DNA of 64,000 nucleotides from Nanobdellota archaeon (GCA_043825215.1 JBDRSD010000039.1:14302-78301), one strand, 5' to 3'. Shown: positions 14,926-32,500, numbered from the stretch's first letter. Made by a program: numbers and translations. The notes: a model not told the origin generated them from the sequence alone.

Positions 14926-17055
14926 TCAGCCATCTCCTCCAGTCTTTCCCTGAGTCTTTCCTTCACCCCTCCCCTCAACCTCCCCTTCAGCAGCACCCGC
15001 CGCATGATCCTGCCCTTTAGGCCCGGCCCCGTCCTTTGCGCTTCCAGAAGATGCCTTTTCTTTCGCAGGGCTTTGCTCTGCATTTCCTGTTGACAAGTCT
15101 TTAGAAGATGCCTGACCAGATGGAGAGACAGGCTGCTCAGATTGCTCCTCTGCCGTCTTAGATGAAACTCCTGAAGCTGCCACCCCCTCTTTCCCATCTT
15201 CATCTGCATCAAGCCTGTCCAATGCCTCATACAGCTCCTGCTTCTGCTCGTATATGGTGTAGAGCTGCTTCAGGCGATCCCCTATCGCCTGTATCCTGGG
15301 ATGATTGACACTCTGCTGCACATATTCCTGGCTTTCCAAAAGCGCGCGCAGCTCGCTCAAGAGCAGGCGCTCCTCTGCAAAAGGCGTGCTGCTCTTCTTA
15401 TACTTGTCAAAAAGGGCAAGCAGGGAAGAATAGACCTTCTTCAGGGAATGCGTCCCCCTGAACAATTCCGCATACTCCGGACTTTTTTGCACCTGCACGA
15501 TCTCATCCGCGATCTCATGCTCAAGCTCAAGCAGGTGAGCATTCTGCAGGCTGATCAAATCCGTGATCTGCTTATAGTGGGTGTCTGCAAGCAAGCGCAG
15601 CCCATCCAGCCTTTTCTTCTCATCATACTCGTATCGCTTCATGATGAAATGGACTACCACGGGAATCAGAACAAGGGCGAGGATGAACACCCAAAGGTAG
15701 AGCAGGTTGAGCTGATAGCAGATGCCGATGAAATAATAATACAGGAACGTCACAAGAGCAACAAGGAGTATTGACATGATGAACCTGAATGTCCTTCGCC
15801 TGATCCTGCTAATCTTGAGAACGCGCTTGAGGCGGCTCTTTGCTGGCTCATCCTGCATCCGCATCTTAATCCGCCTGACCTTCAATTCAGATGAGACCAC
15901 CCTTCCCACAAGCACCAAGAACAGCAATGATGCTATGAAGATAAAATAGGGATTGAACGGATCGACCATGCGCACACACACCAGGCGCGGCAATTCAAAA
16001 ATCGTCTTGCAAGCCTGGCACGGGCCGCCGCAATCAACACCTGATTCCCCCTGGTTCCTCATCCCATCAGCACAGGACGGGCATGCAGGACAAGGCCCGC
16101 CGCAATCAACAGCAAGCTCGCCATAATTCTGAATCCTATCAAAGCAATGCGCACAGGGAGGGCAGGGGCCGCCGCAATCAACTCCTGTTTCCAGCCCGTT
16201 CATGATGCCATCAAAGCAGGTGGGAACATAGAAGCACTCCTGGGAAAGAAGCGGCTTGTTCCTGTCCGTGTTGCAATCAGTCATCTCAGTGCAATTTCGC
16301 GTTTGCACTCCTGACGACTGGCAATCACCCCACTCGGTGCAGAGCCACTTCTCCTCGCATGTGCTCTTGGTGCTTGCCGGCTGGTTTGCAGCTGCTCCTG
16401 CACCAGCACCCCCGCCAGCACCGCTACCGCCTCCAGCCCCAGCCTCACCCTGACCTTCATCGCCGCCCCCTCCAGGAGTCTCATTGGCAGGAGGCGCTCC
16501 GCAGTCGTCAGGACAGGTCTGCTGTGACTCCAGACTATCACAGAATCCGTCACCGCAGACCAGTTTTGGCACGACTATATCCACTCTCTTGAAGGTTCCC
16601 GGCTCATACGTCGGATCCCCTATCAGGCTTGTCTCCAGGCTATCAAAGGTGAAATTCAAGACATTACCCACGCCTGCACCCTCGTCAGTAGCATTGGTCT
16701 CCTCCCAATCGCCCATGCAGGACAACACGCCATAATACCCGCTGTTGACTGTCGTGAACCTGCCGCACTGCTGCGCACCAGGGTCATAGACACGGATCAC
16801 GAGACCAGTAGACGCATTGTCATTATATACCTTCACGCTTCCATAAAACTCAGTAGGAAGGGGAGGAATGGCGCTGCCCATGCCTGCGAAAAGCAGCACG
16901 AACAGCAATATAGCAGCATGTAAACAATAGCTCTGCATCCAGGAACGCATCTGGGGAATAGGCGACAAACTACCTTTATGGACTCGCACTTTCGCATTCC
17001 TATTACGCACGTCCCACGCTTTCCACGCTTCTTTCTGCACTTCTTTTCTTTTCAT
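14926..17055 (-). CDS. Membrane protein, 709 aa. The extracellular domain carries a CGDGxC...CPxDC motif, a Gly/Ala-rich linker and three Cys-rich repeats. Two TM helices and a cytoplasmic coiled-coil plus acidic low-complexity tail follow.
   Basis: CGDGFCDSLESQQTCPDDCG. Three repeats: NGLETGVDCGGPCPPC, NYGELAVDCGGPCPACPSC, NQGESGVDCGGPCQAC. TMs FIFIASLLFLVLVG and IMSILLVALVTFLYYYFIGICY. The start could instead be the internal Met at about 16950. Confidence 0.7.
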   Translation of the reverse strand: MKRKEVQKEAWKAWDVRNRNAKVRVHKGSLSPIPQMRSWMQSYCLHAAILLFVLLFAGMGSAIPPLPTEFYGSVKVYNDNASTGLVIRVYDPGAQQCGRFTTVNSGYYGVLSCMGDWEETNATDEGAGVGNVLNFTFDSLETSLIGDPTYEPGTFKRVDIVVPKLVCGDGFCDSLESQQTCPDDCGAPPANETPGGGGDEGQGEAGAGGGSGAGGGAGAGAAANQPASTKSTCEEKWLCTEWGDCQSSGVQTRNCTEMTDCNTDRNKPLLSQECFYVPTCFDGIMNGLETGVDCGGPCPPCAHCFDRIQNYGELAVDCGGPCPACPSCADGMRNQGESGVDCGGPCQACKTIFELPRLVCVRMVDPFNPYFIFIASLLFLVLVGRVVSSELKVRRIKMRMQDEPAKSRLKRVLKISRIRRRTFRFIMSILLVALVTFLYYYFIGICYQLNLLYLWVFILALVLIPVVVHFIMKRYEYDEKKRLDGLRLLADTHYKQITDLISLQNAHLLELEHEIADEIVQVQKSPEYAELFRGTHSLKKVYSSLLALFDKYKKSSTPFAEERLLLSELRALLESQEYVQQSVNHPRIQAIGDRLKQLYTIYEQKQELYEALDRLDADEDGKEGVAASGVSSKTAEEQSEQPVSPSGQASSKDLSTGNAEQSPAKEKASSGSAKDGAGPKGQDHAAGAAEGEVEGRGEGKTQGKTGGDG

Positions 17056-17085: not shown

Positions 17086-17790
17086 CTATGCTACGAAATT
17101 GATCGTCCCATCAGCAGTCATGTTGATCCAATATGCCTGGAAGGGCACGGTATAGTTCAATGAATTATTATCAAGATCAGGAATGAAGAGTACATAGTCC
17201 GCAATCGTCGTATTATATCCCACCACGTGGGTATATGTCCCATAGACCGAGGACAAGGACTCGTTGATGTCCTTGACGACAGCAAGCGGATAGCTGATCA
17301 GGTTATAGCCGCTATCCACAGGCACATCCTCCTGTGACTTGAGGATTCCCAAATAGGAAAAATGGCCTTCAGCGCTCATGCCGATGACATATCCCTTCAG
17401 GCGCGACACATACGTGAGGTCCTGGACTGTCCAGTTCGGAAGTGTCGGATTATAGCTTTTCCAATAGTCTGTTGCCACACCAGGGCTGTATTCAAAGAGA
17501 TAGGAAAACCCGGACACGTTCTGGAAGAGATTAGCTGGATTCTCATACATCCCGATGCAGTATGCTGAAAAGAGGCTCTGGCCAACAGGAATGTCTGTTG
17601 CACATTCAACAATCGTTCCGTTTCTCACATTCACTGTGGCGACTGCCCATCCTGTCGCCCTGTCCAGAAGAGTCTGGTCTGTCCCGATGAAGCTGACGAA
17701 GAACAAGCAGAGGACAAGCAGGAAAACAAATAGTACGAAGAATCCTTTCCTGCTCCATAGTCCGCCTTGTCTCTCGTCAGCCATCTTCAT
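17086..17790 (-). CDS. N-anchored membrane protein with an extracellular domain, 234 aa (hypothetical)
   Basis: TM FFVLFVFLLVLCLFFVSFIG followed by a sequon-rich domain. The start overlaps the AbrB-like gene stop by 4 nt. Confidence 0.65.
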   Translation of the reverse strand: MKMADERQGGLWSRKGFFVLFVFLLVLCLFFVSFIGTDQTLLDRATGWAVATVNVRNGTIVECATDIPVGQSLFSAYCIGMYENPANLFQNVSGFSYLFEYSPGVATDYWKSYNPTLPNWTVQDLTYVSRLKGYVIGMSAEGHFSYLGILKSQEDVPVDSGYNLISYPLAVVKDINESLSSVYGTYTHVVGYNTTIADYVLFIPDLDNNSLNYTVPFQAYWINMTADGTINFVA

Positions 17791-18059: not shown

Positions 18060-18113
18060 AAAGCAGTATACAAAAACGTATACAAATCGAAATATTTATA
18101 TATTAGTTATGCT

Positions 18114-18542
18114 TTGTATGCCTGTATGGTTATTTTATTCGATCAGTACAACCTGCCAGAGAACATTTACGAGATCATATTCGCAACAAAACAGCAAGTC
18201 ATAGTCGGCAAATTGCTCGTGGAAGAGATGAAACTGAAAGACGGCGAGATGGGAAAGACAGAGATGAGCATGTTCGCAACAGCACTTCACGAAGGAAAAC
18301 TCGTCGAAGAGGTCCAAGACTCCCCCCTCCGCCCAAAGAAGAAAGTCTCCCTCTCCTACAACAAGAGGCAATTCTATGACAGGATCCTCACCCCTATGAA
18401 GACCATGGGCATCATCGACTACGACCTGTACAAGAAGACGTACAAGCTGTCAGACAAGTTCAACAAGAACATGATGAGGATCGGGCTCATGTGGCTGCAG
18501 GAACTCAGAAAGCCACCGCAACGGCTCAACCTCAAAAGATAA
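18114..18542 (+). CDS. Hypothetical basic protein. It is the only plus-strand gene, and the true start is probably the second ATG at 18126.
   Basis: A TTTATATA TATA box at 18094..18101 would place a leaderless start near 18126. A T8 tract follows downstream. Confidence 0.45.
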   Translation: MYACMVILFDQYNLPENIYEIIFATKQQVIVGKLLVEEMKLKDGEMGKTEMSMFATALHEGKLVEEVQDSPLRPKKKVSLSYNKRQFYDRILTPMKTMGIIDYDLYKKTYKLSDKFNKNMMRIGLMWLQELRKPPQRLNLKR

Positions 18543-18606
18543 TCACATTCACAAAAAGAGGGCTCCCAAGAGATTTCTATTCTCTCAACCACCCTCCCCA
18601 CCACCC

Positions 18607-18625
18607 GGGAGCCACTCTTTTTTTT
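18607..18625 (+). terminator. T8 tract (18618..18625) after a weak hairpin, downstream of the plus-strand gene
   Basis: gggagccactcTTTTTTTTc. The 7-bp stem ggctccc/gggagcc encloses a large loop. The oligo-T tract is the main archaeal termination signal. Confidence 0.4.
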
Positions 18626-18777
18626 CTGGGATCAGCATCCGGCTGACGGCTAACTGAGAAATCAGAACTCAGCATCATAAAAAGGGAACAGAACGCAGCT
18701 ATACAACAAGGGATCGAAACGTAGCCAACTGCTGACGGGTGCTGCGAATTCTCGCAGGATTATCTGTAAAAGTCTCT

Positions 18778-19170
18778 TCAGGTACGCATCTTGATAACGC
18801 CCTGACATTTTTTGCTACCGCAGTTACAATTCAAATGTAGTCCAGGAACCTTTTCTCTCACATAATCTGCAGTAATTTCTTCACCTTTTCTAATCATTCT
18901 CACTGCAACATCACATCCTTCTTTTACGTAAGTATTGGAATCACAAGAGTGATTTACATATTTTCCAGGCGGCTTGAAAAGAACAAATACATTATCCTTA
19001 AGGAAGGAAACATACTTTTTTTGACTCGGGAGTAATTTATTAACTTCTTCCTTTGTCAATCTATCTGAACATGTAGACCAATCAATGACCACCTCTCCCT
19101 TCTTAAAATCCCTCCCGGCAAATACTCCTTGCCCATGGATTCTGGATTTTTTAACAACAATATCTGACAT
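18778..19170 (-). CDS. SET-domain protein-lysine methyltransferase (small archaeal-type SET, 130 aa)
   Basis: SRIHGQGVFAGRDFKKGEVV, YVNHSCDSNT (NHSC motif), EEITADY and post-SET CNCGSKKCQG. Confidence 0.85.
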   Translation of the reverse strand: MSDIVVKKSRIHGQGVFAGRDFKKGEVVIDWSTCSDRLTKEEVNKLLPSQKKYVSFLKDNVFVLFKPPGKYVNHSCDSNTYVKEGCDVAVRMIRKGEEITADYVREKVPGLHLNCNCGSKKCQGVIKMRT

Positions 19171-19204
19171 TTATCTTTCACACCCAGTGATACCCGACAC
19201 GGCC

Positions 19205-20989
19205 CTAATGACCACTCTGCTGGCTTCTATGGACGTCTTTTAAAGGATGCCCGCATTTCACACAATGCGTCGCTTTCTTCCTGTTCTTCGCCTTGCAGTT
19301 CGGGCAGCGCCTCTTTCTCAAGACAATGAATGCTATGAGGAGGATGACAACCAGAATGATAAGCCCATACGTCACATAGTCAAGACCTTTCTCCCTGAAC
19401 GCGAAGCTCTTGACCTTGACCTTGACAAGCGAGATCTCCCGAGCACCATAAAACGCCTGCACAAGGACCTGCTCATTATCAAGAACATCCTCTACTGCAA
19501 GCTCGATTGCCACAGGAATCCATTTCTTTTCCCCTTTCTTCAAAAACGTCACCCCGTCAGACGCGACAGTGACTGCCTCACCATTGACGAAAAGATCGAC
19601 AAGCTCCACCTGCGTATACACGTCCACAACCCCGGTGTTCTCAATCTGCACCTCAAACTGCTTCTTCTGCCGGTTATAGACAAGATCCATTATCTCGATG
19701 TCCGTGTCATCAAGGACAGTCACCGACTCCACCCGCAGGGTCTTTTCCACAGTAAACTCCAAAGATTTCTTGCCCTCGCCGAAAATCGTCAAGACCTTGG
19801 CCTCGAGCTCGTCATTCTGGAACCGCAGGGGAGACCCGTCTGAAGACTCTGTATAGATGACAGTCTTGTATTCTCCCCCGTCGATGAAAAGAGGCTCCGG
19901 ATCTCCGATGATAATGGTGTCAGCGCCATCGGTGATAGAAATGGCCGACTTGAAATATGTGGCAAGATCAACAAGATTATGGAAGGTGACTTCAAGAGCG
20001 CTTGTCCCTTTGTTGTAGGCAACAGCATAGATGTCCAGGTTCAGGTTATAGCTTGGCATCGGAAACCGGTCAAGATCCTCGACAGGCGCGATCGATCCTG
20101 AAGGCGTCCTCGACCCTTGGGCAAACTTGACAAAGACACTGATGCCAAGCTGCCTCCTGATGATCGTCGCAGAGCCGATCAGGTCGTTTCCAATAAGCAC
20201 ACCCACATCAATGCCGCTTTTCTTAATATAGTCCCTGATCTGGTCCGGGACATTGGTCCTTCCGATGAAAATGACAGGCTCAGCGCCTGTGAGAAGGCTT
20301 GCCTCGATAAACTCGCCATTGGTCAGGATCGCCTGCTTCTTATTGACAATCTCCTGGAATTTCTTCACGATAGCGATATTGTTGTCAAAGCGGTCTCCCT
20401 CATTGATCACCTCTGGATTGTACCTGGCAAGTTCATCCTTCACGCTCCTGTCCAGCTGGCCATAGAGAAGCACCTTATCAACATCAATCCCTCCGAGAAA
20501 ATCCATCACTTGACCGATTGTCCTGTCATCAGCAAAGAGCACGTACGACCTTGAAACGACTGCATACGGGCCGACAGAAATCGCATTATACCCATAAGAC
20601 GGATCAATGATGATGAAATTCCTGATCCCTGTCAGGCGGTCTGCAAGCTCAAGATTGACATTCTGGTAGATGACCTCTGTCACGTTCTCATATCCCCTTC
20701 CCTCGAAAATCGAGCTATAGCCTGCGACAAAGGCATTCCTTCTTGAGGAGATGACCTCGACCTCGATGTCTTTACTGATGGAATAGAGAAGGATTGTGGA
20801 ATGGCGAGCGCTCGTGATGAAATTCACTGATTTTCCCTCGAGGCTTCCAAAGAGCATGATGGAATACACATCCTTCCAGTCCGCAGAATTCGAAATAAGC
20901 TTCTCTGGTTCACTTGAAACCGAAGGAAGAGTAAATACAACAAGGCACAAAATGGCCATTGATAAAAATACTGACCAACCCCTTACCAT
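19205..20989 (-). CDS. Single-pass surface protein, 594 aa, with a large extracellular domain, a C-terminal TM helix and a cytoplasmic CPxC...CxxC zinc-ribbon tail
   Basis: Signal peptide FLSMAILCLVVFTLPSVSS. C-terminus GLIILVVILLIAFIVLRKRRCPNCKAKNRKKATHCVKCGHPL. A TATA box at 21013..21020 lies about 24 bp upstream. Confidence 0.75.
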   Translation of the reverse strand: MVRGWSVFLSMAILCLVVFTLPSVSSEPEKLISNSADWKDVYSIMLFGSLEGKSVNFITSARHSTILLYSISKDIEVEVISSRRNAFVAGYSSIFEGRGYENVTEVIYQNVNLELADRLTGIRNFIIIDPSYGYNAISVGPYAVVSRSYVLFADDRTIGQVMDFLGGIDVDKVLLYGQLDRSVKDELARYNPEVINEGDRFDNNIAIVKKFQEIVNKKQAILTNGEFIEASLLTGAEPVIFIGRTNVPDQIRDYIKKSGIDVGVLIGNDLIGSATIIRRQLGISVFVKFAQGSRTPSGSIAPVEDLDRFPMPSYNLNLDIYAVAYNKGTSALEVTFHNLVDLATYFKSAISITDGADTIIIGDPEPLFIDGGEYKTVIYTESSDGSPLRFQNDELEAKVLTIFGEGKKSLEFTVEKTLRVESVTVLDDTDIEIMDLVYNRQKKQFEVQIENTGVVDVYTQVELVDLFVNGEAVTVASDGVTFLKKGEKKWIPVAIELAVEDVLDNEQVLVQAFYGAREISLVKVKVKSFAFREKGLDYVTYGLIILVVILLIAFIVLRKRRCPNCKAKNRKKATHCVKCGHPLKDVHRSQQSGH

Positions 20990-21132: not shown

Positions 21133-22044
21133 TTATGGATTTCCGCCCAATTGCCCTTCAATCACGATCGTGCCATTGCAGACACCGAAGGGATTCGGCG
21201 GGATGTATGTCTTCACATACGTTGTATTGATAGACAATTCATCAGTCATCTGCTTAGGCACAGTTATATTCTGAACAACCCGAGGACCACTCGTCATCGC
21301 AACCATGGTATCATAGCTGATGTTGCCAAGAGATGTCCACCGCACATTGCCAATAGAGATGTTTGTCCCTATCGGACAGACAAAGGCAAGGCCACCGCCT
21401 GATGCATTGCTGTTTCCCCCATAGCCATAGATGGTCAGGTTCAAGGGCTGGTTGCCCCAGTTCGTCACGTTGATCTCGCTGACATCTGACGTGTCAAAGA
21501 CCGAGAGGTTGCCAAAATCGACTGCGTCTGTCACGTTGACTGCGTAGAGGGGATAGATCGTGCTGAAATTGGTCCCATTCTGGGTGTAGTTCAGCGTGCT
21601 GTTGACAAAGACCGTGCAGTTCCAACTCCCGTTGTACGCGTAATAGGTCACGTTGAAATCGCAGTAGTACGCAAAATTGTTCGCATCGATCGAATAATTG
21701 TAGCTGCAATTGGTGTTCTTGTAGACCGTGTTGTTTTCAGCATCAGCAAAAACGCTCGTGTTCGACCTGTGGAATGTCGCGTTGACCTTGTCGATGTCGC
21801 TCAGGCCGGAATAGTCAGTGATTGTCACATTGCAGACCACATTCAAGTCCGTTCCCTCAGATAGGTTGATCGGCCCTCCCTGGTTGATAACGATATTTGC
21901 GACTGTCGCCGCAGACTGGGTGATGTTCACCTGGGTCGAGACTGTCGTCTGGTCATAGCTTACGGCAACGCCAACAAGCCCTATCATCAGAAGAGATGTT
22001 GCTGCTATCAACAGTGCCAGTATCTTATTGTTTGCCATTTTCAT
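21133..22044 (-). CDS. N-anchored extracellular protein, 303 aa, paralog of 10572..11510
   Basis: MKMANNKILALLIAATSLLMIGLVGVAV. Blocks VNITQS..INQGGPINLSEGT..CNVTITDYSGLSDIDKVNATFHRSN...YVKTYIPPNPFGVCNGTIV. The start abuts the stop of the next gene at 22044/22045. Confidence 0.75.
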   Translation of the reverse strand: MKMANNKILALLIAATSLLMIGLVGVAVSYDQTTVSTQVNITQSAATVANIVINQGGPINLSEGTDLNVVCNVTITDYSGLSDIDKVNATFHRSNTSVFADAENNTVYKNTNCSYNYSIDANNFAYYCDFNVTYYAYNGSWNCTVFVNSTLNYTQNGTNFSTIYPLYAVNVTDAVDFGNLSVFDTSDVSEINVTNWGNQPLNLTIYGYGGNSNASGGGLAFVCPIGTNISIGNVRWTSLGNISYDTMVAMTSGPRVVQNITVPKQMTDELSINTTYVKTYIPPNPFGVCNGTIVIEGQLGGNP

Positions 22045-22779
22045 TCACTTAATCTCTGCGTAAAAGTAATACGCGTTCGTTGTTGTGCTTGACCCGTTCT
22101 CAGGGACTATCATCTGGAAATCATACGTCGTGTTGTCAAAGCCGTATGCATTGTTCTCGATAAGGGCCGCAAAGACCATGTTGCCTCCGTCAGAGAGGAC
22201 AACCTCCTGGAAATCAGAGGCGGTCGCAGTCGCCTGGCGGGTGTCGTTGACAAACAGGAAGGTCGAATTACAGGTGTTCGCCGTGATCGTCACCGCACCC
22301 ACCTTGATCTGAGTATGCACAGTCGCATTGAACGAGCGGTTGATGTTGTCGACCTGTGTCGCGCTGTAGCCGAAGTAATTGTTCTCGCTCTCCATATGCG
22401 CCTCATTGGCGCAGACAATCCCTGGCCAGTTGATGGTGCTGTTCCTCGACGCATAGACCTCTCCGCCGGTGACGGTGAGTTCCCAATTGTATATCGTCCT
22501 GTTCTGCGCGTCATCCAAGGTGAAGCTTCCTGTCACGTTCCCGAGGTATGCCTTCCAGTTCTGGTTCTGGGAGAGCGTGTCCATGTTGGTTACATAGATA
22601 TACCCTCCAGAATCGTTCCTTGATCCGGCTGCGGTCCCATTGCTTGAGCCGTTGTACTGAAAAGAGACAGCAACACCGGACGGCAGTGCAGCTATCTCCC
22701 GTAGGACAAGCCCTGCAACCCCTAAAAACAGGACGAGGGTTACCAATCCGATGTATGCGTTTCTTTTCATGTTAGTCAC
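22045..22779 (-). CDS. Secreted ~240-aa protein, member 1 of a five-gene paralogous family
   Basis: Signal peptide with AALPSG cleavage region. Family motifs WKAYLGNVTG, TIYNWE, GEVYASR, DFQMIVPENG. C-terminus YYFYAEIK. Confidence 0.75.
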   Translation of the reverse strand: MTNMKRNAYIGLVTLVLFLGVAGLVLREIAALPSGVAVSFQYNGSSNGTAAGSRNDSGGYIYVTNMDTLSQNQNWKAYLGNVTGSFTLDDAQNRTIYNWELTVTGGEVYASRNSTINWPGIVCANEAHMESENNYFGYSATQVDNINRSFNATVHTQIKVGAVTITANTCNSTFLFVNDTRQATATASDFQEVVLSDGGNMVFAALIENNAYGFDNTTYDFQMIVPENGSSTTTNAYYFYAEIK

Positions 22780-22798
22780 CTTTTCAATAGTGTTCGTC

Positions 22799-23545
22799 TT
22801 ATCCGAGCTCCACCCAGAAGTAATACTGGGTCAGCGTGTTCTCCTCAGCCAATGTGTGCCCATCCTCAGGGACAAGCATCTGGAAGTCATGGGCCTCGCC
22901 ATCAAATCCTGTTGCCGTGTCGTTAATGACCGACACATAGACTATATCATGGTTGATATCATTCAAAATCACTTCAGCATACACATAAGGTGCTGATTGA
23001 GCTGCTCCACTCACATAGGTATAAGTCGTATAGCAGGTGTCTGCCTCTGTGATGTTCGCATTGCCCACATAGAACTGCGGGTGCGGATTTGCAGTTGAGA
23101 ATGTCGCTGAGATGTTGTCTGCGTCAGTCTCTTCCATGCCCATCGCGACCTCTTCCTCAAGGATCTTTGATGCATTCGAGCAGTTGACCCAATTGAAATT
23201 GACCGTGTTGACACGGGCTGCATAAACCTCTCCCTGGGTTGATCCTATACCCCACTTGTACAGCTGCTGGCCATTGGAATCTTCCAATGTGATGTTTCCG
23301 GTCACATTACCGTAGAAGCCCTGCCAGGCCTTGGTTATCTGGGTCCCGTTGATCTCGAGTTCAGATATGTTTCCTGCCTGCGCATACACGCTTCCGATGC
23401 TTCCACCAGACAGGTTTCCCCGTGTTGAGTTGAGCACGCCAACTTCTGCCCCTTCCGGGTTTGCGAGCGCCATTCTCACGCTTGCAAGGGCTATTGCTAG
23501 TGTCAATCCCACAAAAAGGATTGCGTATATTCTCTCTTTTTTCAT
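22799..23545 (-). CDS. Secreted ~248-aa protein, family member 2
   Basis: MKKERIYAILFVGLTLAIALASVRMALA. Motifs WQGFYGNVTG, GEVYAARV, DFQMLVPEDG. C-terminus YYFWVELG. ATGA overlap with the upstream HTH gene. Confidence 0.75.
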   Translation of the reverse strand: MKKERIYAILFVGLTLAIALASVRMALANPEGAEVGVLNSTRGNLSGGSIGSVYAQAGNISELEINGTQITKAWQGFYGNVTGNITLEDSNGQQLYKWGIGSTQGEVYAARVNTVNFNWVNCSNASKILEEEVAMGMEETDADNISATFSTANPHPQFYVGNANITEADTCYTTYTYVSGAAQSAPYVYAEVILNDINHDIVYVSVINDTATGFDGEAHDFQMLVPEDGHTLAEENTLTQYYFWVELG

Positions 23546-24144
23546 AAAACCACCTCTCCTTCATTTTTTTTTAGATGCGAAGGATCGTAAAGAACGAAAA
23601 AGTCCCCTTTCATGCGGCTTTGTGCATCATGAGCTGAGACAAACTGGCACTTGAATGATTTTTTCTGGACACTTGCTGCAAGATGTTTTTTCTTCACGCG
23701 GTCATCATCCGACACTATATAGAGAGTCTGGTTTGAGAAATCCGCATACAGTGCCTTGATCCTGTCCAGATCATCTTCAAAGGACATGAACATCCGAAAC
23801 AGCTGGTCAGACTTTGCTTCATCATCGAGAAGCAGGATCTTTATGACTGCAGATCTTTTTGCGTTCAGGGTGATCTGCTTTTTCTCTGCATGGTGGGGCT
23901 CAAGAAGAATGATCATTGCCGTGCTCTTGACAAGGGAATAGACAAGCCTTGGCTGGCCGCGATCCCGATTCGGCACCCGAACGCTTGCGACAAGACCTGC
24001 CATTTCAAGGAGGCGTAGCTGCTGGCTCACATTTGCGACAGAAGTCTTTGCGATCTTCGCGATCTGGATAGGGGACTTGCCTTCCTTACTCAGTATGGAC
24101 AGGATGTCCCATTTTGTTGCTGTAAAGAGCATCTCTTGATTCAT
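23542..24144 (-). CDS. Winged-HTH transcription regulator (TrmB/ArsR-like N-terminal domain), 200 aa
   Basis: SPIQIAKIAKTSVANVSQQLRLLEMAGLVASVRVPNRDRGQPRLVYSL. Confidence 0.65.
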   Translation of the reverse strand: MNQEMLFTATKWDILSILSKEGKSPIQIAKIAKTSVANVSQQLRLLEMAGLVASVRVPNRDRGQPRLVYSLVKSTAMIILLEPHHAEKKQITLNAKRSAVIKILLLDDEAKSDQLFRMFMSFEDDLDRIKALYADFSNQTLYIVSDDDRVKKKHLAASVQKKSFKCQFVSAHDAQSRMKGDFFVLYDPSHLKKNEGEVVL

Positions 24145-24473
24145 GCATGTACATTCGCGTGTTTCAGATTAGCGTTTCCGCCTATCACATACACACGAAC
24201 CCTCCCGACACTTTTTCACGATTGGCGCACGCGATGTTAGCCGGCACCGCATGCGCCGCTAGTATACACTTTTGTATGTTACTCTATCCCATGACAGTAC
24301 TTCTATTTAAATGTTTCGTTTTCTACTGTACCACTGTGTTAATGTACCACCACACTATTAATTGCACAATCTTACATTATTTTTGTAATTTTATAATTTA
24401 GTAACTAATTAAATTATGAGATTGAAGGCCTCAAGCGCCATAACTCAAGAATTCGTCGCAAATCATATGGCAC

Positions 24474-25193
24474 CTAACCAATCTCTGCAAAGAAATAATA
24501 GGTTGTCGGGCTTGACGCAAACTCATCATTGGCAAGAATCAGCTGGAAGTCATAGAGCTGGTTGTTGAAGCCATACTTATTGTTCTCAATGATTGTCGCG
24601 TAGAACAGGGAAGAGGTATCTGTCAGGAGGATCTCCTGGAAGAGCGCAGTCGGACCTGCTGCCTGACGCGTATCATTGACATAGGTTGCAATGGCAAAAC
24701 AATCGTTCTGAGGAATCGACACTGTCCCGACATAGAATGCCTTATGGAATGACGCATTGAAGGTGTTGTTCAGGCTGTCTGCGCTATCCGCATTCATATT
24801 GATTGCCGTCATCTCGCCAGACATGTCTGCTGCATCAGCACACTCTGTGAGCGCCCAATTGAGGGTTCCCGCTCGGGACGCAAATATCTCTCCTGTCACA
24901 ATCGACGGGGTCCAATCATAGATGGTGTTGTTCACAGCATCATTCAGCGTCATGATCCCGGTGACATTACCCACGTACGCCTTCCACCGCAGGGATTGCG
25001 CAGTGATATTGAGCGACATCGTCGTAAATGAACCTCCTGCTGTCGTCAATTCTGCTGCTGACTGCGGCGTGTAATTAAGGGTCTGATTATAGATGAAGTC
25101 GACACCGCTCGGAAGCGCGCTTGCCCAGGCAGACAGGGCAAGGACCATCAGGAGGGCAAGAATTCCCCATCCGGCCTGTTTCTCCTTATACAT
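24474..25193 (-). CDS. Secreted protein, family member 3. The start is refined to the internal ATG at 25193; the track ORF runs to 25283.
   Basis: MYKEKQAGWGILALLMVLALSAWASALPSG. Motifs WKAYVGNVTG, TIYDW, GEIFASR, DFQLILAND. C-terminus YYFFAEIG. The refined start removes the overlap with the upstream regulator. Confidence 0.7.
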   Translation of the reverse strand: MYKEKQAGWGILALLMVLALSAWASALPSGVDFIYNQTLNYTPQSAAELTTAGGSFTTMSLNITAQSLRWKAYVGNVTGIMTLNDAVNNTIYDWTPSIVTGEIFASRAGTLNWALTECADAADMSGEMTAINMNADSADSLNNTFNASFHKAFYVGTVSIPQNDCFAIATYVNDTRQAAGPTALFQEILLTDTSSLFYATIIENNKYGFNNQLYDFQLILANDEFASSPTTYYFFAEIG

Positions 25194-25701
25194 GTTCCCT
25201 CCCTTCAAGCTTTTTCTGCGCGCGATGATATGATGTCCAGACAGTCCTTTGGTCCTTCCTGAGGAGGGATCCCATCTCTGCATAGGAGAACCCTGCGCCC
25301 TTCAGGAAGACACAAATCGCCTCAAGAGGGCCGAGCAGACGATCTGAGAAGACAGACAAGGGAACATTCACGGCAGAGGATGCAGGGATGCCAGTTGCCC
25401 CTTGAGGAAGCTTTCTGTAGCTTGTCCAGACAGCAGCATAGCTTCTCTTGAGATGGAGCGCAATCTCATCAAACGACAGGCGCCCCACATCATGGAGATA
25501 AGCGACAAGCACCCGCAGGATGCTTGCATCAGTGAAGAAGACAGAAAGCGGGACAGACAACTCAGCCGTTTTCAGGGTGTGAGAATATCTCTGCTCATTC
25601 TGCATGGGCAATGCTATTGCGACATAGTTCTCTTCTTTTTCCTGCAGCGCCCCATCTCGCCAACTCTCAGTTGCAGTGTCATTTCGATACGTCGAATCCA
25701 C
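25186..25701 (-). CDS. Regulator with an internally duplicated HTH (sigma-70 region-4/LuxR-like), 171 aa
   Basis: Two repeats: LSVFFTDASILRVLVAYLHDVGRLSFDEIALHLKRSYAAVWTSYRKL and LSVFSDRLLGPLEAICVFLKGAGFSYAEMGSLLRKDQRTVWTSYHRAQKKL. Confidence 0.55.
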   Translation of the reverse strand: MDSTYRNDTATESWRDGALQEKEENYVAIALPMQNEQRYSHTLKTAELSVPLSVFFTDASILRVLVAYLHDVGRLSFDEIALHLKRSYAAVWTSYRKLPQGATGIPASSAVNVPLSVFSDRLLGPLEAICVFLKGAGFSYAEMGSLLRKDQRTVWTSYHRAQKKLEGREHV

Positions 25702-25705
25702 GTAA

Positions 25706-25776
25706 TTCGTATTATGTAAGTATCTGATTTAAAAAGTTTGGCTTTTTCCAAGTTATTTTTCGTATTATGTAAGTAT
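25706..25776 (+). promoter_or_regulatory. Perfect 18-bp direct repeat TTCGTATTATGTAAGTAT (25706..25723 and 25759..25776) flanking a TTTAAAAA TATA-like element
   Basis: Read from the sequence. It begins 5 bp upstream of the regulator start codon at 25701. Confidence 0.55.
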
Positions 25777-26002
25777 TTCATCACACAATAACCACATTAT
25801 TTAATTTATTACTAAAATATTGAAGTATTAAAACATTTAAACATAGAAACAATGAAGTACAGAAATACAAGAAAACAGAAATACAATAATCAATTATGTT
25901 CTACATGATTTCCTTCTGTCGTCGGAATAGGAGGCAAGCGTGTCCAGAACACCTGGAAACAAAGGAGTAAAAAGGGTCTACAAAAGTGAAAAAGCCTTTC
26001 CT

Positions 26003-26761
26003 TCAGATCTCCACATAGAAATAATAGGTGGTCGGGGTTGCGAGGGTCTTGTTCTCCGGGAGGATGAGCTGGAAGTCGCTCGTCACATTGTCTGTCGAAT
26101 TCGTCTGGTAATTGAATTGGTCCTGCTCGATGAAGGTCGCATAGATGAGGCTGAAATGCGCATCCATGAGGAGGAGCTCCTGGAATACACTGTTAACGCT
26201 CACAGTCTGCTTTGTGTCATTGACATAGGTCGAGGTCATCCTGCAGGTGCTCTCGTTTATTGTGGACGTCGCGACCTGCATGGGCTTATGCGTCGACTCA
26301 TTGAACGTGCTGTTGATGCTGTCAGGAGCAGAATCGACCATACCGAAAAAGGTGGTCTCATTGTCCCTCACGGAGCTATTTGAGCAGTTGATCCACGTCC
26401 AGTCTATCGAGTTGTTCCTTGTCGCGTAGATCTCTCCTGTGAGTTCAGACGCATTCACCGACCAGTCATAGATCGTCCTGCCTTCTGTATCATCCAATGT
26501 GAAGAGGCCTGTCACGTTCCCGATGTATGCCTTCCACGCATAGTTCTGCTGGGTAGCAGATATGGAACCATAATAGAGATAGCCGCCGGCATTCGCAAGG
26601 GAATACGGGGTTGAACTGATGGTCGAGTTATCGGTGACGCTTATCGTCGGGCCGACAGGAAGCGCACTGACAGATGCCCAGGTGATCAGAGAAACCCCAA
26701 TGACCATCAGGAGCCATATCGCCTGTACACTCTTGGCCTGTGTGCGTTTCATTGGCATCAT
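26003..26761 (-). CDS. Secreted protein, family member 4 (252 aa)
   Basis: AIWLLMVIGVSLITWASVSALPVG. Motifs WKAYIGNVTG, TIYDWS, GEIYATR, DFQLILPEN. C-terminus YYFYVEI. Confidence 0.75.
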   Translation of the reverse strand: MMPMKRTQAKSVQAIWLLMVIGVSLITWASVSALPVGPTISVTDNSTISSTPYSLANAGGYLYYGSISATQQNYAWKAYIGNVTGLFTLDDTEGRTIYDWSVNASELTGEIYATRNNSIDWTWINCSNSSVRDNETTFFGMVDSAPDSINSTFNESTHKPMQVATSTINESTCRMTSTYVNDTKQTVSVNSVFQELLLMDAHFSLIYATFIEQDQFNYQTNSTDNVTSDFQLILPENKTLATPTTYYFYVEI

Positions 26762-26819
26762 CGCGTTGTTGGTTAAAGGACAGACCCGGGCAATTGCCCA
26801 GAATCTGCTGTATTAATGT

Positions 26820-27704
26820 TTACTCAATCTCTACCCAGAAGTAATAGTTGGTCTGGGTGTCTTCTGTTGCTTCTGTATGACCATCTTCCATGACTAGCAT
26901 CTGGAAGTCATAGGGAGTTCCGTCAAAGCCGATAGGGTCTGATGCGTTGTTTTCGTCATTCTCGATGAACGTGACAAAGACAAGCGCATTGCTGCCACCG
27001 TCGCTTACGCTTCCGTCAGTCAGGAGGACTTCTGTGAAATCCTTTGCCTGGGAGACATTGCCTATGTATGTCCAGGTTGTCGGGCAGGTCTGTTCATGGA
27101 TCGTCACTGTTCCGACATTGAACCTTGTGTGGTTGGTCCAGTTGAAGGTCACGTTGATCGTGTCTGGATCAGTATTCAGGAGACCGAACCTGGCATTCTC
27201 TGTGCTTGCATTGATATCAGATCCAACATAGGTTCCGTTACCAACATCTGCATCCGGATCTCCAGCAGTGAAATTGAAGCAGCGGATCTGACCCCACGCA
27301 ACTGAGGAGTTTGTCGACGTGTAGATCTTTCCCTGGGGCTCTGCATCGTTCCAATTGTAGAGCGTGTTGTTCTGGGCATCCTGCAAGATGAGCTGGCCGC
27401 TGATGTTCCCATAGTAGCCCTGCCAGGATTTTGTGACGGATGTCGCGTTCAACACGAGCTCAGTCACGTTGCCTGCTTCGGCAGGAGTTGACTTGGGACT
27501 ATACGATGTGTTCAAGAGGCGCTCACTTCTTCCAACAGTGAGGGTGTGCACACCGATAGGCTCTGTCGGCTCTGCAAAGCTGAATCGCAGCACAAAACTG
27601 AGAGCCAATATTGTCAATACCACAAAACTGATGTTTTTTATCAGGTTTCGTCGAATCATTTTGATTTCACCTTTTCCACGATCCCGTCCGATAAACGAGA
27701 CCAT
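26820..27704 (-). CDS. Secreted protein, family member 5 (294 aa). An alternative start is at 27659.
   Basis: MIRRNLIKNISFVVLTILALSFVLRFSFA. Motifs WQGYYGNISG, TLYNWN, GKIYTST, DFQMLVMEDG. C-terminus YYFWVEIE. Confidence 0.75.
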   Translation of the reverse strand: MVSFIGRDRGKGEIKMIRRNLIKNISFVVLTILALSFVLRFSFAEPTEPIGVHTLTVGRSERLLNTSYSPKSTPAEAGNVTELVLNATSVTKSWQGYYGNISGQLILQDAQNNTLYNWNDAEPQGKIYTSTNSSVAWGQIRCFNFTAGDPDADVGNGTYVGSDINASTENARFGLLNTDPDTINVTFNWTNHTRFNVGTVTIHEQTCPTTWTYIGNVSQAKDFTEVLLTDGSVSDGGSNALVFVTFIENDENNASDPIGFDGTPYDFQMLVMEDGHTEATEDTQTNYYFWVEIE

Positions 27705-27883: not shown

Positions 27884-29188
27884 TTATCTTTCGTCGAGAA
27901 ATAGCGCATCGAGAAAGCGAGAAAACTCTTCCTTTGCACGTATTCCCTTTGCCTGTTCTGAGAGAAAAGGATCAAAGAGGGAAAGCCAGGGAAGAAAATG
28001 GTTCTCCTGCGCATTCACGTGATGTGAAAAGACAGTATCGTCGACAGATGAGAGCATCTCCTGCAGCTCACGAAGTGAGGCTATTGCCCTGCCGTCTGCG
28101 AGGATGAACGCCTTATCAGGCGGAAGCAGCTTGTCAAGGATTGTGGGAGCGGGAGGGCCTGCCAATCCAGCATTCTCAAGACCTTCATCAGAGAAACCTG
28201 CAGCAGGCATCACCTCTCCACCAGGATGTTGCCCTGGCAGGGATGCTATCGGCTGCTCAGGAATGCCTGCGATAAGTGGGCTTGCCGGAGGGGAGCTTGC
28301 CGGGAAAGGACGCATATCCCCTATCAGCGGATCAAGGGCTGTTTCTGCAGAGGCAGCCACTGCCCCGCCTGTTCTTGCCATCCTTTGCAGCCCTTTTTTC
28401 CCATTTTTTGCAAGAAGATCCTGCTTCTCAAACGCGCCATGCTTTGCCATCACCTGCTTCAGATCATCAATCATCTGCTCAATCTTCTCTTCCCGCTCAC
28501 GCAGGGTGTCCTGCAGGGCGCTCACTTCCTGGCTCACACGGATCCAATCGTCTTCCAATGACTTGAGCGAGTGGATCTTCTCCATGACATATGCATCATA
28601 ATCAGTCTTATCAAACACATAGGACTTGCCTTCCTTTTTTCTGCCATGATACTCCTTCATCTTGGCAAAGATGTCCTTTTCCAGAAGGTTCTTGACTTCC
28701 TGCTCTGACAGCTGCGTATCCTGCAAGAGGCGCTCGATCTTCTCAAAAAAGAGCGCGTTTGCAAGCAGCCCTGAAGGCAATGATGCAGTATCCTGGCCCG
28801 CGACAGAATGCGTGGCGGAAATATTGTTCTTCTGCACGTCTGCAATGATAGTATTGACGATCGAATTATAATCAACCTGTTTTTTCGGCGGGACTTTCAG
28901 CTCTGGAAAAGAAAGCTCTGGCTTTGATGCAGCAGATGCATCCCTGCCCGTCCTCAAGGCTGCGTCTGGTGGACTTCTCGCTTCTCCAGAAAACGCCTGG
29001 CTGATAGGGTGCTGTTTTTCCGACGGAGCTGTCACATGACCAGTTGCAGGAAACGGCCTGGACGTAGAGATTGCCTGCGGCAGTGCGTCAGTTTTCAAGG
29101 ATGGAAATGGAGGAGCCAACCCTCCCTGTTTCTTTTTGACCACTCCCTTGACTTTCTCTAGTATGCCTCTGATGATTTCACCCCGCAT
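27884..29188 (-). CDS. Cytoplasmic protein with a Pro-rich N-terminus and a central coiled coil, 434 aa (hypothetical)
   Basis: No TM segment. Heptad-like region LLEKDIFAKMKEYHGRKKEGKSYVFDKTDYDAYVMEKIHSLKSLEDDWIRVSQEVSALQDTLREREEKIEQMIDDLKQ. TATA 29206..29215 lies about 20 bp upstream of the ATG. Confidence 0.6.
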   Translation of the reverse strand: MRGEIIRGILEKVKGVVKKKQGGLAPPFPSLKTDALPQAISTSRPFPATGHVTAPSEKQHPISQAFSGEARSPPDAALRTGRDASAASKPELSFPELKVPPKKQVDYNSIVNTIIADVQKNNISATHSVAGQDTASLPSGLLANALFFEKIERLLQDTQLSEQEVKNLLEKDIFAKMKEYHGRKKEGKSYVFDKTDYDAYVMEKIHSLKSLEDDWIRVSQEVSALQDTLREREEKIEQMIDDLKQVMAKHGAFEKQDLLAKNGKKGLQRMARTGGAVAASAETALDPLIGDMRPFPASSPPASPLIAGIPEQPIASLPGQHPGGEVMPAAGFSDEGLENAGLAGPPAPTILDKLLPPDKAFILADGRAIASLRELQEMLSSVDDTVFSHHVNAQENHFLPWLSLFDPFLSEQAKGIRAKEEFSRFLDALFLDER

Positions 29189-29545: not shown

Positions 29546-32500
29546 CTATGTCAACTCAACATAGATCGCGAACGCATCTGTTCCTGCCTTGTATGCCCGA
29601 AGGAGCGCGGGAACCTTGATCTCATAATCATACACCCCATACATGCCCGCTCCTCCAAGAGATAATTCTGTCACAAAGACCAAGTCCTCCTCATCCGAAT
29701 CATCATACTGGAGATTCACCGACGTGTCATCTGCAGTGTCCCACAGGATGCCAGACACGAATGCAGAGGTATTTGTCGAGTTGACTATGGGGACGTCAGA
29801 GATGTCTCCAGAGGAAAAATTGAATGCGCGTGTCGCGACCGGGACATCAGTGCCATTGCCCCAGACAAGTTTCACCGAATCATTGAAGCCCGCACTCGCA
29901 AGCCCGGCATCGATATCTGTGAAATCGTTTCCGACAGTCAGGTTGTTTGTGCTCCTTCCAATCGCCTGAAGACCAGAAAAGCTGAAACTGCTGTCAATAT
30001 CAGCAACAAAGAGGAAGCTATTTTCATTCACCGACGCATTCGTGAACCCAAGGAGCGAATCGTTGACGCCAAATCCGAGGATGATGTTTTTCGTCACATT
30101 GCCATAATAGAGCTGGTACAATGAGACGGACAAATTATAACTCGCATTGTTATTCTGCTCGTCAGTCTCATTCACCTCCTGCCCGGGATCGATCATGACC
30201 CATATCTCGTTCTTGCCCGGGATGAGTATATGGGACACGTTCACGACAGCCCATTCCCCTGATGCAAGGATGCCGACAGTCTGATTAGAATCGATGAGAG
30301 TCCCTCCTTGAGAAGGATTCCCAAGATAGAAGGACACATTGAACTCGCTTGTCGCGTTCGTCAATCCGGCATTGGAGATGTTTGCGAATATCGTGATGTT
30401 GTTGCCTTCGACAACCGACTCGTTTCCGAAGAAGATGTCGCTCGTGTCCATGGTGAAATCAGGTCCTGTGATGTTCAATGTGAAGTTAGCGGGAGCGAAT
30501 CCCCAGTTGCCGTCCGTGTCGCTGCAGTTCACGTTCCATGCGTAAACCCCGGAGACCATAAAGATGTCTGCGAACGTGTTGTTCGCCCCATTCACAGGAG
30601 AGGAATCGGTCTGGTTCTTGCTGAAACCGCCGTCTTTCCCGAGATACAATGCACAGGACAGCAGATTAATATCGTGTGGAGCATACGTGAAATTCACAAG
30701 GTCCTCCCCTTGCGCGTATAGGTCATGGGGAGAGACAAGGGTGATGTTCGGAGTGGTGGAATCAGGATTCAGGTTGAAAGCAGCATACCCTTTTCCCGTA
30801 TTAAAGCCTGAAGCCTGAGCAAAAGCCACTGCAGAATAATTCCCGACAGGCCACCCGAGCATCGAGAAGTTGGTGATGAGAGTCCCGTTCAGCGCGTCAG
30901 TCAGCCCCGCCTTCAGCCCGAGGAGAGTCTCCTGCGGCAATATGCCTGCTATCGGTTCATTCTCGATGAGAATCCTGATGCGGATATCATCTGTATCGAA
31001 TTGATAACCGCCATGGATGACAAACCTGTCGAATTGGACAACGCTCGGGTCTGTCCCCTGGAGGGAATCGAGGTAAGTGCGATCCGTATCATTATAGACA
31101 GTGATGTTGATCTGCGTGTTGTTCCACGTCTGCTCGATAACATACCAGGTGTTCAGGAAGAAATACGACGTAGCTGTCGTCGCGACATTTCCTGCGCTCG
31201 TTCCTCCTGAACGCTCTTCAATGCCGAATGTCCCAGAAGGGTTGACATCCGTTATCTGGAAGCCGTAGCCATTGAACCCGCTGTCAGATATCGCATATCT
31301 TGATTGTTCACCGCCAGCTTCATTCGGCCTGTTAAAGCGGTACAGCGCGACATATCCTGTGATGTTCTTCGTGAAGAGGGCGTATCCGCCGTTCGGATCG
31401 TTGTTGGTGTCCTTTCGGCCCACATAGCTTCCGCCAGCCAGCGCAAGCCCCACCTGCCCCAGGCTGTAATTGGTCCAGTCAGAGATATTCCCTTCCTCAA
31501 AATCCTCATAAAAGAAGTAGATATTGCTCTGATTTGCCGGCGGGCTTGTGACTGTGCCGTTCCCAAAATAGACGTAATACATGCTGGTATGATTATTTTC
31601 GCTTATGCCCTCCTGGAGCCTGAACCACAAGTCTGTCTGGGTTGTGTTGAATGCAGTCGTGTTGACCCGGTCGAGCTCTATGTTTGTCTGGTTGGACTCG
31701 TTGAAAAACACGATCCGAATGTCATCGCCATCAGGCTGCATCTCCGGATTGGTCGTGTTGAGCGCGATAAGCACAGTATACCCCTCCTCGAGTATGCTCG
31801 CGTTGTTGTTCGTGATGTTTATGGGGAAGCGGTAGGGATAGCTGGCATTCCACCAGGGGACTTGAGTAATGCTGTTGTTCGTAAAGATCACGCTCACTGT
31901 CGCATCGGACACGACCGGATTCCCATAGGTGTCATTCGCCATGACCCTCACGATGAGCGTATCTCCTCTCTCGTATTCTGGCAGGGATGTGTTGACGCTC
32001 ACGTTAAGGAAAGGGATGATGTTCACGACAAAATCCCGTATCCCGCTGGCACCAAGATTCCCAGGGATGTCGTAGCACCTCACCTGCCAGGAATAGCTTC
32101 CGTCTTCAAAGGGGACGGAGAACGTCTGGGTCGCATCCGTCATGATTTCCGTATCGGTCGTATTCAGCGAGCCATTGATGTAGAGGGAGCAATTGGTGAC
32201 TGCGCTTGCGTCTGCCACCTTGTACGAGAACGTGACAAGGGCTGTTCCGACTGTGCCGTTTGCCTCTGGGAAATACATCGTCAGGTTCGGGCCTGTCGTA
32301 TCGTTCACCTGAAGGAAGTGCGTGACCACCTGCCCGGTGTAATTCTGGGTTGTATTGAAGAACGCAGTGATGTTATAGGTCCCCGGATTTGAGAAAAAGG
32401 TTATGTTCTCAATGGGTGATGACCCGTTCTGGATCTCGGTGCCGTTCAAGTAGAGGTGCACAAATCCTCCCTGCGGCAGATTTGAAACCACAGTCATATT

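Follow-up and report, generated by a model that had tools for sequence, protein, structure and literature searches.

What might a set of five similar secreted proteins, encoded together with two regulators beside the genes of giant surface proteins, do for the archaeon that carries it? The set lies at positions 22045-27704 of a 64,000-nt stretch from a Nanobdellota archaeon (GCA_043825215.1, JBDRSD010000039.1:14302-78301), the whole of which is referred to here as the window. A sequence-only reading had described the genes as a lineage-specific expansion of paralogs that it could not assign to a known family. We find that the five genes are, by sequence, two ordered alpha/beta pairs (WQG, then WKA) plus one regulator-coupled beta-like copy, and that their shared domain, here called the F module, also ends both neighbouring giant proteins in a divergent form. 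The F module most likely builds or anchors a structure at the cell surface. Our preferred reading, to which we give a probability of roughly 0.4, is that F modules co-assemble extracellularly into a membrane-tethered scaffold that would in turn tether the giant adhesins. All functional readings below rest on sequence, synteny and single-chain models.

The five paralogs and their family

All five open reading frames (ORFs) are present on the minus strand where the sequence-only reading had placed them. Paralog 1 (26820..27704, a 294-aa ORF; family hidden Markov model (HMM) E 2.7e-70) is of the alpha type (WQGYYGN ... YYFWVEIE), carries 15 N-x-S/T sequons and two Cys, and is the first of the pair that follows the gene for a predicted cytoplasmic protein, p434. 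Paralog 2 (26003..26761, 252 aa; E 3.1e-80) is of the beta type (WKAYIGN ... YYFYVEI). Paralog 3 (24474..25193, 239 aa; E 1.2e-86) is the beta-like type coupled to the regulator gene hthS. The second pair consists of paralog 4 (22799..23545, 248 aa; E 8.7e-80), again alpha (WQGFYGN ... YYFWVELG), and paralog 5 (22045..22779, 244 aa; E 2.7e-88), again beta. The start of paralog 1 is likely M16 at 27659 (26820-27659), which fits the homologs better than 27704, and that of paralog 5 is likely the ATG at 22770 (22045-22770) rather than the GTG at 22779. From this ATG the protein has 241 aa and is identical to the NCBI product P0001 (ABIJ21_03825); ABIJ21_03825 and ABIJ21_03830 are NCBI locus tags of this genome. 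The ORF of paralog 3 reaches 25283, yet 25193 is the likely start, as it fits the family.

The proteins resemble one another far beyond composition, with 32 invariant columns in a MAFFT alignment and 33-41% identity to the first sequence. All 10 pairwise BLASTP E-values among them fall between 1e-32 and 1e-60. In a six-frame translation of the window, the family HMM returned the five paralogs at E 1e-70 to 1e-88 and no further ORF below E 0.1. The ordered motif blocks that had been proposed as shared are real, although single copies depart slightly from them: the 248-aa copy has WQGFYGN and QLYKW, the 294-aa copy GKIYTST, and the 239-aa copy DFQLILANDE.

By inspection, each paralog also has the Sec signal attributed to it, an n-h-c signal peptide with small residues at -3/-1. 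A basic n-region leads into 15-20 hydrophobic residues and then a small-x-small site, and the predicted cleavage sites of the five are IAA|LP, ALA|NP, ASA|LP, VSA|LP, and SFA|EP. Every paralog has exactly two Cys and between 8 and 15 sequons. Signal peptide, Cys pair, and sequons together place the five, on inspection of their sequences, in the generic class of N-glycoproteins exported through Sec and cleaved by signal peptidase I. The small F proteins thus look like secreted extracellular glycoproteins that contain disulfide bonds and lack an anchor of their own.

Could they belong to a family that is already known? Scans against Pfam and NCBIfam gave no match for any paralog, in agreement with the sequence-only reading. 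A Pfam scan of all 121 members of the family alignment found no recurring family, and the family profile had no match among PDB sequences at E up to 10. Relatives in other archaeal genomes, which the sequence-only reading had suggested looking for, are numerous. A word-indexed protein search found at least 439, all annotated as hypothetical except for one evident mislabel. At E <=1e-3, an exhaustive search across 1.84 billion representatives yielded 1,427 clusters (50% identity), of which 512 reached E <=1e-30, and the GTDB species representatives contained 421 confirmed stretches. Nearly all carriers are metagenome-assembled genomes named Woesearchaeota, Pacearchaeota, Nanoarchaeota or Nanoarchaeia. 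Submitters labelled a few others as "uncultured Methanosarcinales", "Saccharibacteria", "Bacteroidota" or "bacterium" (L009, L012, L014, L024, and others; P0275, P0300). These labels could not be verified, and they are probably placeholder or binning labels, since the distribution is otherwise exclusively DPANN. No relatives were found among IMG/VR viral contigs, and the window contains neither tRNAs nor Rfam features; the data lend no support to a viral or mobile origin of the family.

Identity of about 40% is kept across many species. Two Cys are present in 104 of the 121 aligned members, and the median number of sequons is 11. Many polar or aromatic residues are invariant: W75, D90, W99, E107, R112, E132, D144, H155, Q182, D197, D220, and E227. 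The sequon at N81 (GN[VI][TS]G) is kept in 96% of members and that at N178 (VN[DS]T) in 72%; these are the best conserved, and N125 and N137 are further sequon columns of the alignment.

In the literature we found no description of the F family or of its gene cluster, and a preprint on complete Nanobdellota genomes does not mention surface genes. Castelle et al. 2021 (PMC8204110) define a "Module 98" of 51 families that are restricted to Pace- and Woesearchaeota and mostly of unknown function. Module 98 and the F family have the same taxonomic restriction and the same missing annotation, and the F family and its partners may be among the Module 98 families. That paper does not describe the F family, its cluster or the link to the giants. 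The family, its predicted fold, and its cluster are without known counterpart.

Gene order and the modules of the giant proteins

Synteny was counted in 78 loci from other genomes. Many of these lie on contigs that end early, which makes the partner counts lower bounds. The order giant > p434 > F F > hthS-F > hthA-F F > p303 > p594 > p234 > p709 recurs in dozens of species. Here hthS and hthA are the two regulator genes, p303 encodes a secreted glycoprotein, and p594, p234, and p709 encode membrane-anchored proteins. In L055, for example, the order holds from the giant down to p594, the last gene before its contig ends; L020 and L038 have it minus p594, and in L011 it can be followed as far as p303. 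The number of F copies per locus within approximately 10 kb ranges from one to seven and is mostly two to five, with five in 13 loci. The triplet F-F-p303 was seen 52 times and the order p594-p234-p709 15 times.

The position of a copy within this order goes together with its type. The first gene of a pair carries WQG in 38 of 52 cases and WAG in another five, and the second has WK[AG] in all 52. The gene after hthS has WK[AG] in 41 of 47. Consistent with this, the best matches of paralog 3 are genes after hthS in other genomes (24/25), those of paralog 4 are first-after-hthA orthologs (22/25), and those of paralog 1 are orthologs at the first position after either p434 or hthA. Exactly one F gene, never two, comes after hthS in 47 of 50 cases. 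The gene next to hthA is an F gene in 50 of 55 cases, with F-F in 37. Each alpha/beta pair is closed by p303 or lies close to it. The five copies are thus positionally orthologous subtypes in the same order in many species, and the idea of a lineage-specific expansion is not supported. The F set is instead ancient and fixed, as would be expected for the distinct subunits of one assembly.

The sequence-only reading had connected the paralogs with the giant surface proteins by proximity, and this link turned out stronger than first guessed, as both giants end in a divergent copy of the F module (G-CTD). In the 4,510-aa giant (gene 29546-43078, minus strand), the G-CTD is the last ~200 aa (29549..30148); it aligns to the very C-terminus of the family in a single-sequence hhalign comparison (E 0.011), and a CARDB domain at aa 4206-4312 lies ahead of it. 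In the giant of at least 6,933 aa (gene 43075-63876, minus strand), it is again the last ~200 aa (43078..43677), with a single-sequence hhalign probability of 72% and E 3.4e-5. Both giants stay in register with the family through to their final residues. The ORF of the giant of at least 6,933 aa runs from a GTG at 63876 and is open to the window end (6,974 codons), so the protein may exceed the length given. The module was missed by direct HMM search (independent E-value 0.16 or none) and is seen by profile-profile comparison only. In such a comparison, a profile of 29 giant C-termini taken from the loci matched the family profile at 98.6% and E 6.8e-16 over 168 columns. An independent giant C-terminus profile built from database matches gave 98.4% and E 4.5e-15, and six unrelated families of the cluster, used as controls, scored 13% or less.

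The predicted structures agree with this relationship. An AlphaFold2 model of paralog 5 (m7cd7ced083be, from the 121-sequence alignment) has a mean predicted local distance difference test score (pLDDT) of 86.4, a predicted template modelling score of 0.79, and pLDDT >90 at residues 110-244. The signal-peptide helix is followed by an arm that is conserved yet poorly ordered (residues 33-72, pLDDT 51-76) and a four-stranded meander. An 11-residue helix, a short helix, and about seven strands then complete the fold, the last strand being the C-terminal YYFxVE[IL]. The model of the last 210 residues of the giant encoded at 43075-63876 (pLDDT 80.6) shows the same order of secondary structure, beginning with a four-stranded meander and continuing through two helices to six or seven strands. 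The G-CTD has neither of the two Cys and lacks most of the invariant polar residues. The sequons are kept, however, with 66% of G-CTD copies having the N81 equivalent (GN[VT][TS]) and 79% the N178 equivalent (VNST). Several of the best-conserved motifs are thus sequons that persist even in the divergent giant version, which suggests that site-specific glycans matter for the F module.

The F module comprises the arm of ~40 residues and a core of ~175. Elsewhere in the exhaustive search it forms the C-terminal ~215 residues of longer proteins (468-2,359 aa), and in all 240 strong matches in the loci its distance to the stop codon is 0-4 residues. The passengers of these fusion proteins are DUF2341, LamG-like, beta-helix, and Ig-type domains. 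The giants themselves have cleavable-looking signal peptides and no C-terminal transmembrane segment. In three species-level loci, an F-like domain lies in the ectodomain of a bitopic protein with a cytoplasmic P-loop ATPase of the HerA/DUF87/TrwB type, encoded 3-8 kb from the cluster (L026:7462-11274, minus strand; L002/L003:18585-20735, plus strand; L044:1-2043, minus strand). This combination fits the F module as a docking element.

Fusion proteins also contain a second module of ~120 aa, which ends in FxVx(H/S/G)FSxY and sits at a constant 320-336 residues from the C-terminus. The Pfam Nup98-96 autopeptidase family S59 was matched by eight proteins, one of them above the gathering score (31.0 vs 28.4 bits). 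A profile of ten copies (A5) found only the autoproteolytic domains of Nup98, Nup145, and Nup116 in the PDB, at E 9e-5 to ~0.35, and aligned the archaeal FxVxHFSxY with the Nup98 cleavage site FKVSHF|SKY. The resemblance to autoproteolytic domains of the ZU5, GPS, and Nup98 (S59) types concerns only this neighbouring module and not the F module. HFS is present in P0175, P0202, P0233, P0239, and P0241, whereas other copies have SFS, GFS or AFS. The His is thus replaced in many archaeal copies, including that of the window, which lies at aa 1735-1856 of the 4,510-aa giant (37511-37876, minus strand; Pfam E 0.002, below the cut-off) and has SFS at aa 1841-1849. In other surface proteins, modules of the S59/ZU5 type mark the boundary between a part that is shed and a stub that stays anchored. 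If they are active here, we infer, the C-terminal product of cleavage would be a stub comprising one Ig-like domain and the F module, which would fit the F module as the retained, cell-proximal end. Autopeptidases of the ZU5 type have been described in bacterial surface proteins (PMC3482391).

A proposed surface scaffold and its alternatives

In the scaffold model, the small F proteins would be exported through Sec and cleaved by signal peptidase I, and would then acquire disulfide bonds and N-glycans, partly at positions conserved in the family. Cleavage would leave them with no membrane anchor. Outside the cell, F modules would bind one another to form a hetero-oligomeric scaffold, possibly a short fibre, ring or patch of lattice, held at the membrane by the co-conserved p594, p234, and p709. 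The giants would be tethered to the cell as their own divergent F modules co-assemble with the small subunits. At the level of expression, hthS would probably autoregulate the hthS-F operon through two semi-palindromic operator copies flanking a TATA box, and hthA heads the alpha-beta-p303 operon. We regard this model as the simplest because it accommodates the fixed heterotypic set, the strictly C-terminal shared module, the giants without anchors, and the membrane-anchored partners.

Several points weigh against the model. The core cluster contains no gene for an assembly ATPase, a peptidase, a sortase or an usher-like protein. The high conservation and the many invariant polar residues would be explained equally well by a ligand-binding or enzymatic site. 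The giants could also be anchored at their N-termini by signal sequences that stay uncleaved, in which case the F module would sit at the distal tip. Finally, the arm has no free N-terminus in the fusion proteins, and classical N-terminal donor-strand exchange is therefore an unlikely way for F modules to assemble.

Comparison of the F model with PDB chains and with the structures of a viral library gave no match, so that the pilin-like, lectin-like or beta-sandwich folds that had been put forward for checking were not found, and the domain's predicted fold would be without structural precedent. Type IV pilins can be rejected on their signals, as the N-termini have no consistent [KR][GA] and carry an A-x-A-type site after the hydrophobic stretch instead. 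Unlike type IV pilins, moreover, the F module of the fusion proteins has no adjacent helix, and no PilB/ArlI-type ATPase, PilC/ArlJ platform or prepilin peptidase was found in the window or among the recurrent partners. Subunits of the TasA, AbpA or thread type were likewise rejected, with no Pfam match to Peptidase_M73/TasA and no jelly-roll or beta-sandwich fold match, as were chaperone-usher pili, for which fold match, signal type, and machinery are all missing. No described S-layer protein showed sequence or fold similarity.

Comparison with these and other systems is still informative. TasA, the Pyrobaculum bundling pili (AbpA), and the Sulfolobus threads are, like the F proteins, built from Sec-secreted, glycosylated subunits of ~25 kDa with no assembly ATPase. 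The arm at residues 33-72 (pLDDT 51-76) is what a donor strand would look like in a single-chain model, which makes it compatible with a donor-strand fibre and not diagnostic of one; F proteins differ from such fibres in that the arm is internal in the fusions, where a free N-terminal strand is not required. As in FimH, which joins a lectin to a pilin domain, and in sortase-assembled tip pilins, a small module occurs both in paralogous subunits and at the end of a large adhesin, and the genes are clustered with regulators. What is shared with FimH-type adhesins is the principle of joining an assembly, since the F module is homologous to no such system. The C-terminal domains of the type IX secretion system, SLH and CWB2 domains, and cohesin-dockerin pairs resemble the F module as strictly C-terminal modules on varied large surface proteins, and in possible non-covalent attachment. 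Unlike these retention and sorting domains, the F module also exists as free-standing secreted proteins of fixed subtypes, spans ~215 aa with a fold of its own, and comes with no matching secretion or sortase machinery.

Of the alternatives, the one that survives best places the F module at the distal end of the giants. Here it would be a lectin-like head that binds a ligand or host, with the giants anchored by their N-terminal hydrophobic segment and the small paralogs serving as short versions, secreted or exposed at the surface, that bind the same glycan on host or self. DPANN archaea depend on host contact, which favours such a head, and the F module does have many invariant polar and aromatic residues. 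The adhesin-type passengers of the giants and fusions (DUF2341, LamG, beta-helix, Ig) would suit a binding function too, and 4 of the 121 members have weak matches to CBM64, a carbohydrate-binding module family (best E 0.026). In adhesins, however, the host-binding tip normally varies most, whereas no part of the giants is as conserved as the F module. The G-CTD retains few of the invariant polar residues and neither Cys, the fixed alpha/beta order and subtype set look like stoichiometric subunits, and the signal peptides look cleavable. No match to a lectin or carbohydrate-binding fold was found either, and we consider a distal head unlikely.

Slightly less likely again is that the small F proteins and p303 form the S-layer or outer envelope lattice itself, with the giants inserted through their F-like domain. 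To our knowledge, no S-layer protein has been identified in Woesearchaeales, which leaves room for one. The F proteins would have suitable properties, being secreted, heavily N-glycosylated by prediction, anchor-less, encoded alongside membrane-anchored partners, and present across the clade. S-layer proteins are usually fast-diverging and encoded by one or two genes, and this is not what the F family looks like, with ~40% identity across species, two to seven differentiated copies, and dedicated regulators.

We consider it improbable that the small paralogs are secretion or folding partners, or caps, that bind the terminal module of the giants transiently. Such a role would account for F genes that adjoin the giant genes on the same strand and are homologous to the giants' C-terminus. 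It would not account for F clusters with no giant within 10 kb (e.g. L021, L037, L075), nor for canonical F modules that are themselves fused to passengers, and five differentiated, glycosylated, disulfide-bonded extracellular copies exceed what a chaperone function would need. A polymorphic-toxin-like arrangement, in which the giants would carry a C-terminal effector and the downstream genes would be spare cassettes, fits the layout superficially (a giant with an autopeptidase-like module, then an array homologous to its C-terminus) but is scarcely credible, as each small gene has a start codon and signal peptide of its own, the subtypes are orthologous and conserved where cassettes would vary, G-CTD and F are only remotely related, the paralogs share no long identical DNA for recombination (60-76% identity over 87 nt), the window has no small immunity-like genes, and the module is conserved, not polymorphic.

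The scaffold model can be extended further, although we would hold the result as a tentative and rather doubtful proposal. The alpha/beta heteromers would polymerise into a glycosylated fibre or socket into which the giant adhesins plug by homotypic module contacts, and in some lineages it would also dock onto a membrane HerA/VirB4-like ATPase. This would be a new class of surface assembly, unrelated to type IV pili, TasA-like fibres, and known S-layers, and it might serve Woesearchaeales- and Pacearchaeales-type DPANN archaea as a host-attachment, and possibly transfer, apparatus.

Regulators, partner proteins and surroundings

The two interleaved genes encode helix-turn-helix (HTH) proteins, as the sequence-only reading had it, both with Pfam matches above the cut-offs. 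The product of hthS (25186..25701, minus strand) has 171 aa with two HTH repeats resembling sigma-70 region 4 (Sigma70_r4_2, 29.3 bits against a cut-off of 25.7, in two stretches). A sigma-70 factor it is not, as only region-4-like repeats are present and no region 2, and we describe it as an HTH DNA-binding protein. The product of hthA (23542..24144, minus strand) has 200 aa, consisting of a winged HTH of the ArsR/MarR type (HTH_5, 29.7 bits, cut-off 22) and a C-terminal domain of ~110 aa; its NCBIfam match to ArsR/SmtB is below that model's cut-off. Both genes are tightly packed against the F genes. The 3' end of hthS overlaps the next F gene by 8 nt, and the stop codon of hthA overlaps the next F start by 4 nt (ATGA). 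The spacer between the 248-aa and 244-aa genes is 19 nt and that between the 244-aa gene and p303 is zero, leaving gaps of ~300 nt only ahead of hthS and hthA.

Homologs of hthS occur in 51 of the 78 loci and those of hthA in 48. Synteny, seen in about 50 loci, and a conserved operator support the regulators as members of the cluster. In the window the operator occurs as two copies of TACTTACATAATACGAA on the minus strand, 53 nt apart and flanking a TATA-like box upstream of hthS. Copy 1 (25759..25775) is upstream of this box in the hthS promoter, and copy 2 (25706..25722) precedes the hthS GTG by 4 nt, overlapping the site where transcription is expected to start. These are the only two matches to TACTTACATAATACGAA in the 64-kb window, where 0.09 would be expected. 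The consensus TACTTACATAATAAGTA is an imperfect palindrome, TACTTA-N5-TAAGTA. In 1.02 Mb of other loci, 46 of its 60 matches precede hthS on the same strand at a distance of no more than 350 nt, and it is found upstream of hthS in 33 of the 51 loci that have the gene. There is good evidence in these sequences for TACTTACATAATAAGTA as a predicted, dedicated cis element of the hthS-F operon, where it is probably autoregulatory.

The regions upstream of hthA share a different set of elements, a promoter-like AACATTTAAATA box plus GTATACTG and ATACAAAA words. In the window, at ~24200-24320 on the minus strand, the AACATTTAAATA box and ACATACAAAAGTGTATACT words are those common to 19-29 of 53 hthA upstream regions of other genomes. 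They lie ~60-110 nt before the annotated hthA ATG, which implies either a long leader or a different start. Since the operator is found only at the hthS-F promoter, it argues for separate control of at least that copy, and separate control of the modules is plausible.

Among the partner proteins, p303 (21133..22044, minus strand; homologs in 56/78 loci) is a secreted glycoprotein of 303 aa with 25 sequons and six Cys, whose gene closes the alpha-beta-p303 triplet. The type I membrane protein p594 (19205..20989, minus strand; 37/78, with 48% identity in L004) consists of a signal peptide, a large ectodomain, a transmembrane segment at aa 539-557, and a cytoplasmic zinc ribbon. The small surface protein p234 (17086..17790, minus strand; 31/78) has an N-terminal anchor. 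The membrane protein p709 (14926..17055, minus strand; 35/78) has a Cys-rich ectodomain (27 Cys), three further transmembrane segments, and a cytoplasmic coiled coil with a low-complexity tail. On the other side of the F genes, p434 (27884..29188, minus strand; 31/78), which is predicted to be cytoplasmic and has no signal peptide or transmembrane segment, is encoded between the giant genes and the first F pair. None of p303, p594, p234, and p709 has a Pfam relative, and p594, p303, and p709 have no sequence match in the PDB. Homology to the F module was rejected for p303, p234, p594, p434, p404, and p709 (hhalign 13% or less). Between p234 and p594, which adjoin each other in other genomes, the window has a 1.4-kb insert (17790-19205) with a 130-aa ORF that looks SET-like by eye (NHSCDSN ... 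CNCGSKKC), although this was not confirmed by any search, and two small ORFs.

Beyond p709, two more copies of the p303 family are present at 10572-11510 and in the C-terminal half of 7684-9264, one of them behind an Ig-like (Big_7) region. The gene for p404 (9269-10483) follows p303-like genes, as it does in L002/L003. With the extra p303 copies and p404, the surface island therefore holds a second, partial module set. A third giant ORF (1-7041, minus strand) encodes more than 2,347 aa with DUF2341 and Ig-like domains, its C-terminus lying beyond the window start. Between this ORF and the surface genes, at 7035-7550 on the minus strand, lies a 171-aa fragment of the phage integrase family (Pfam E 2.9e-16). 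This fragment, approximately 7 kb past the last cluster gene, is the sole trace of a mobile element.

Few uncultivated archaea are as widespread as Woesearchaeales and Pacearchaeales, which are presumed to live attached to hosts. We know of no account of how they build their surface or hold their partners. The cluster provides a concrete, conserved set of about ten genes. It encodes the small F proteins with their fixed subtypes, p303 as their partner glycoprotein, the three membrane proteins, two regulators, one of which has a recognisable operator, and the giant adhesins with the F module at their ends. What had been hypothetical proteins next to giant genes thereby becomes a testable apparatus, with a sequence signature by which it can be found and compared in metagenomes and with candidate antigens or labels for imaging. 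If it is true that the F module assembles or anchors this apparatus, it would represent a new principle of archaeal surface organisation.

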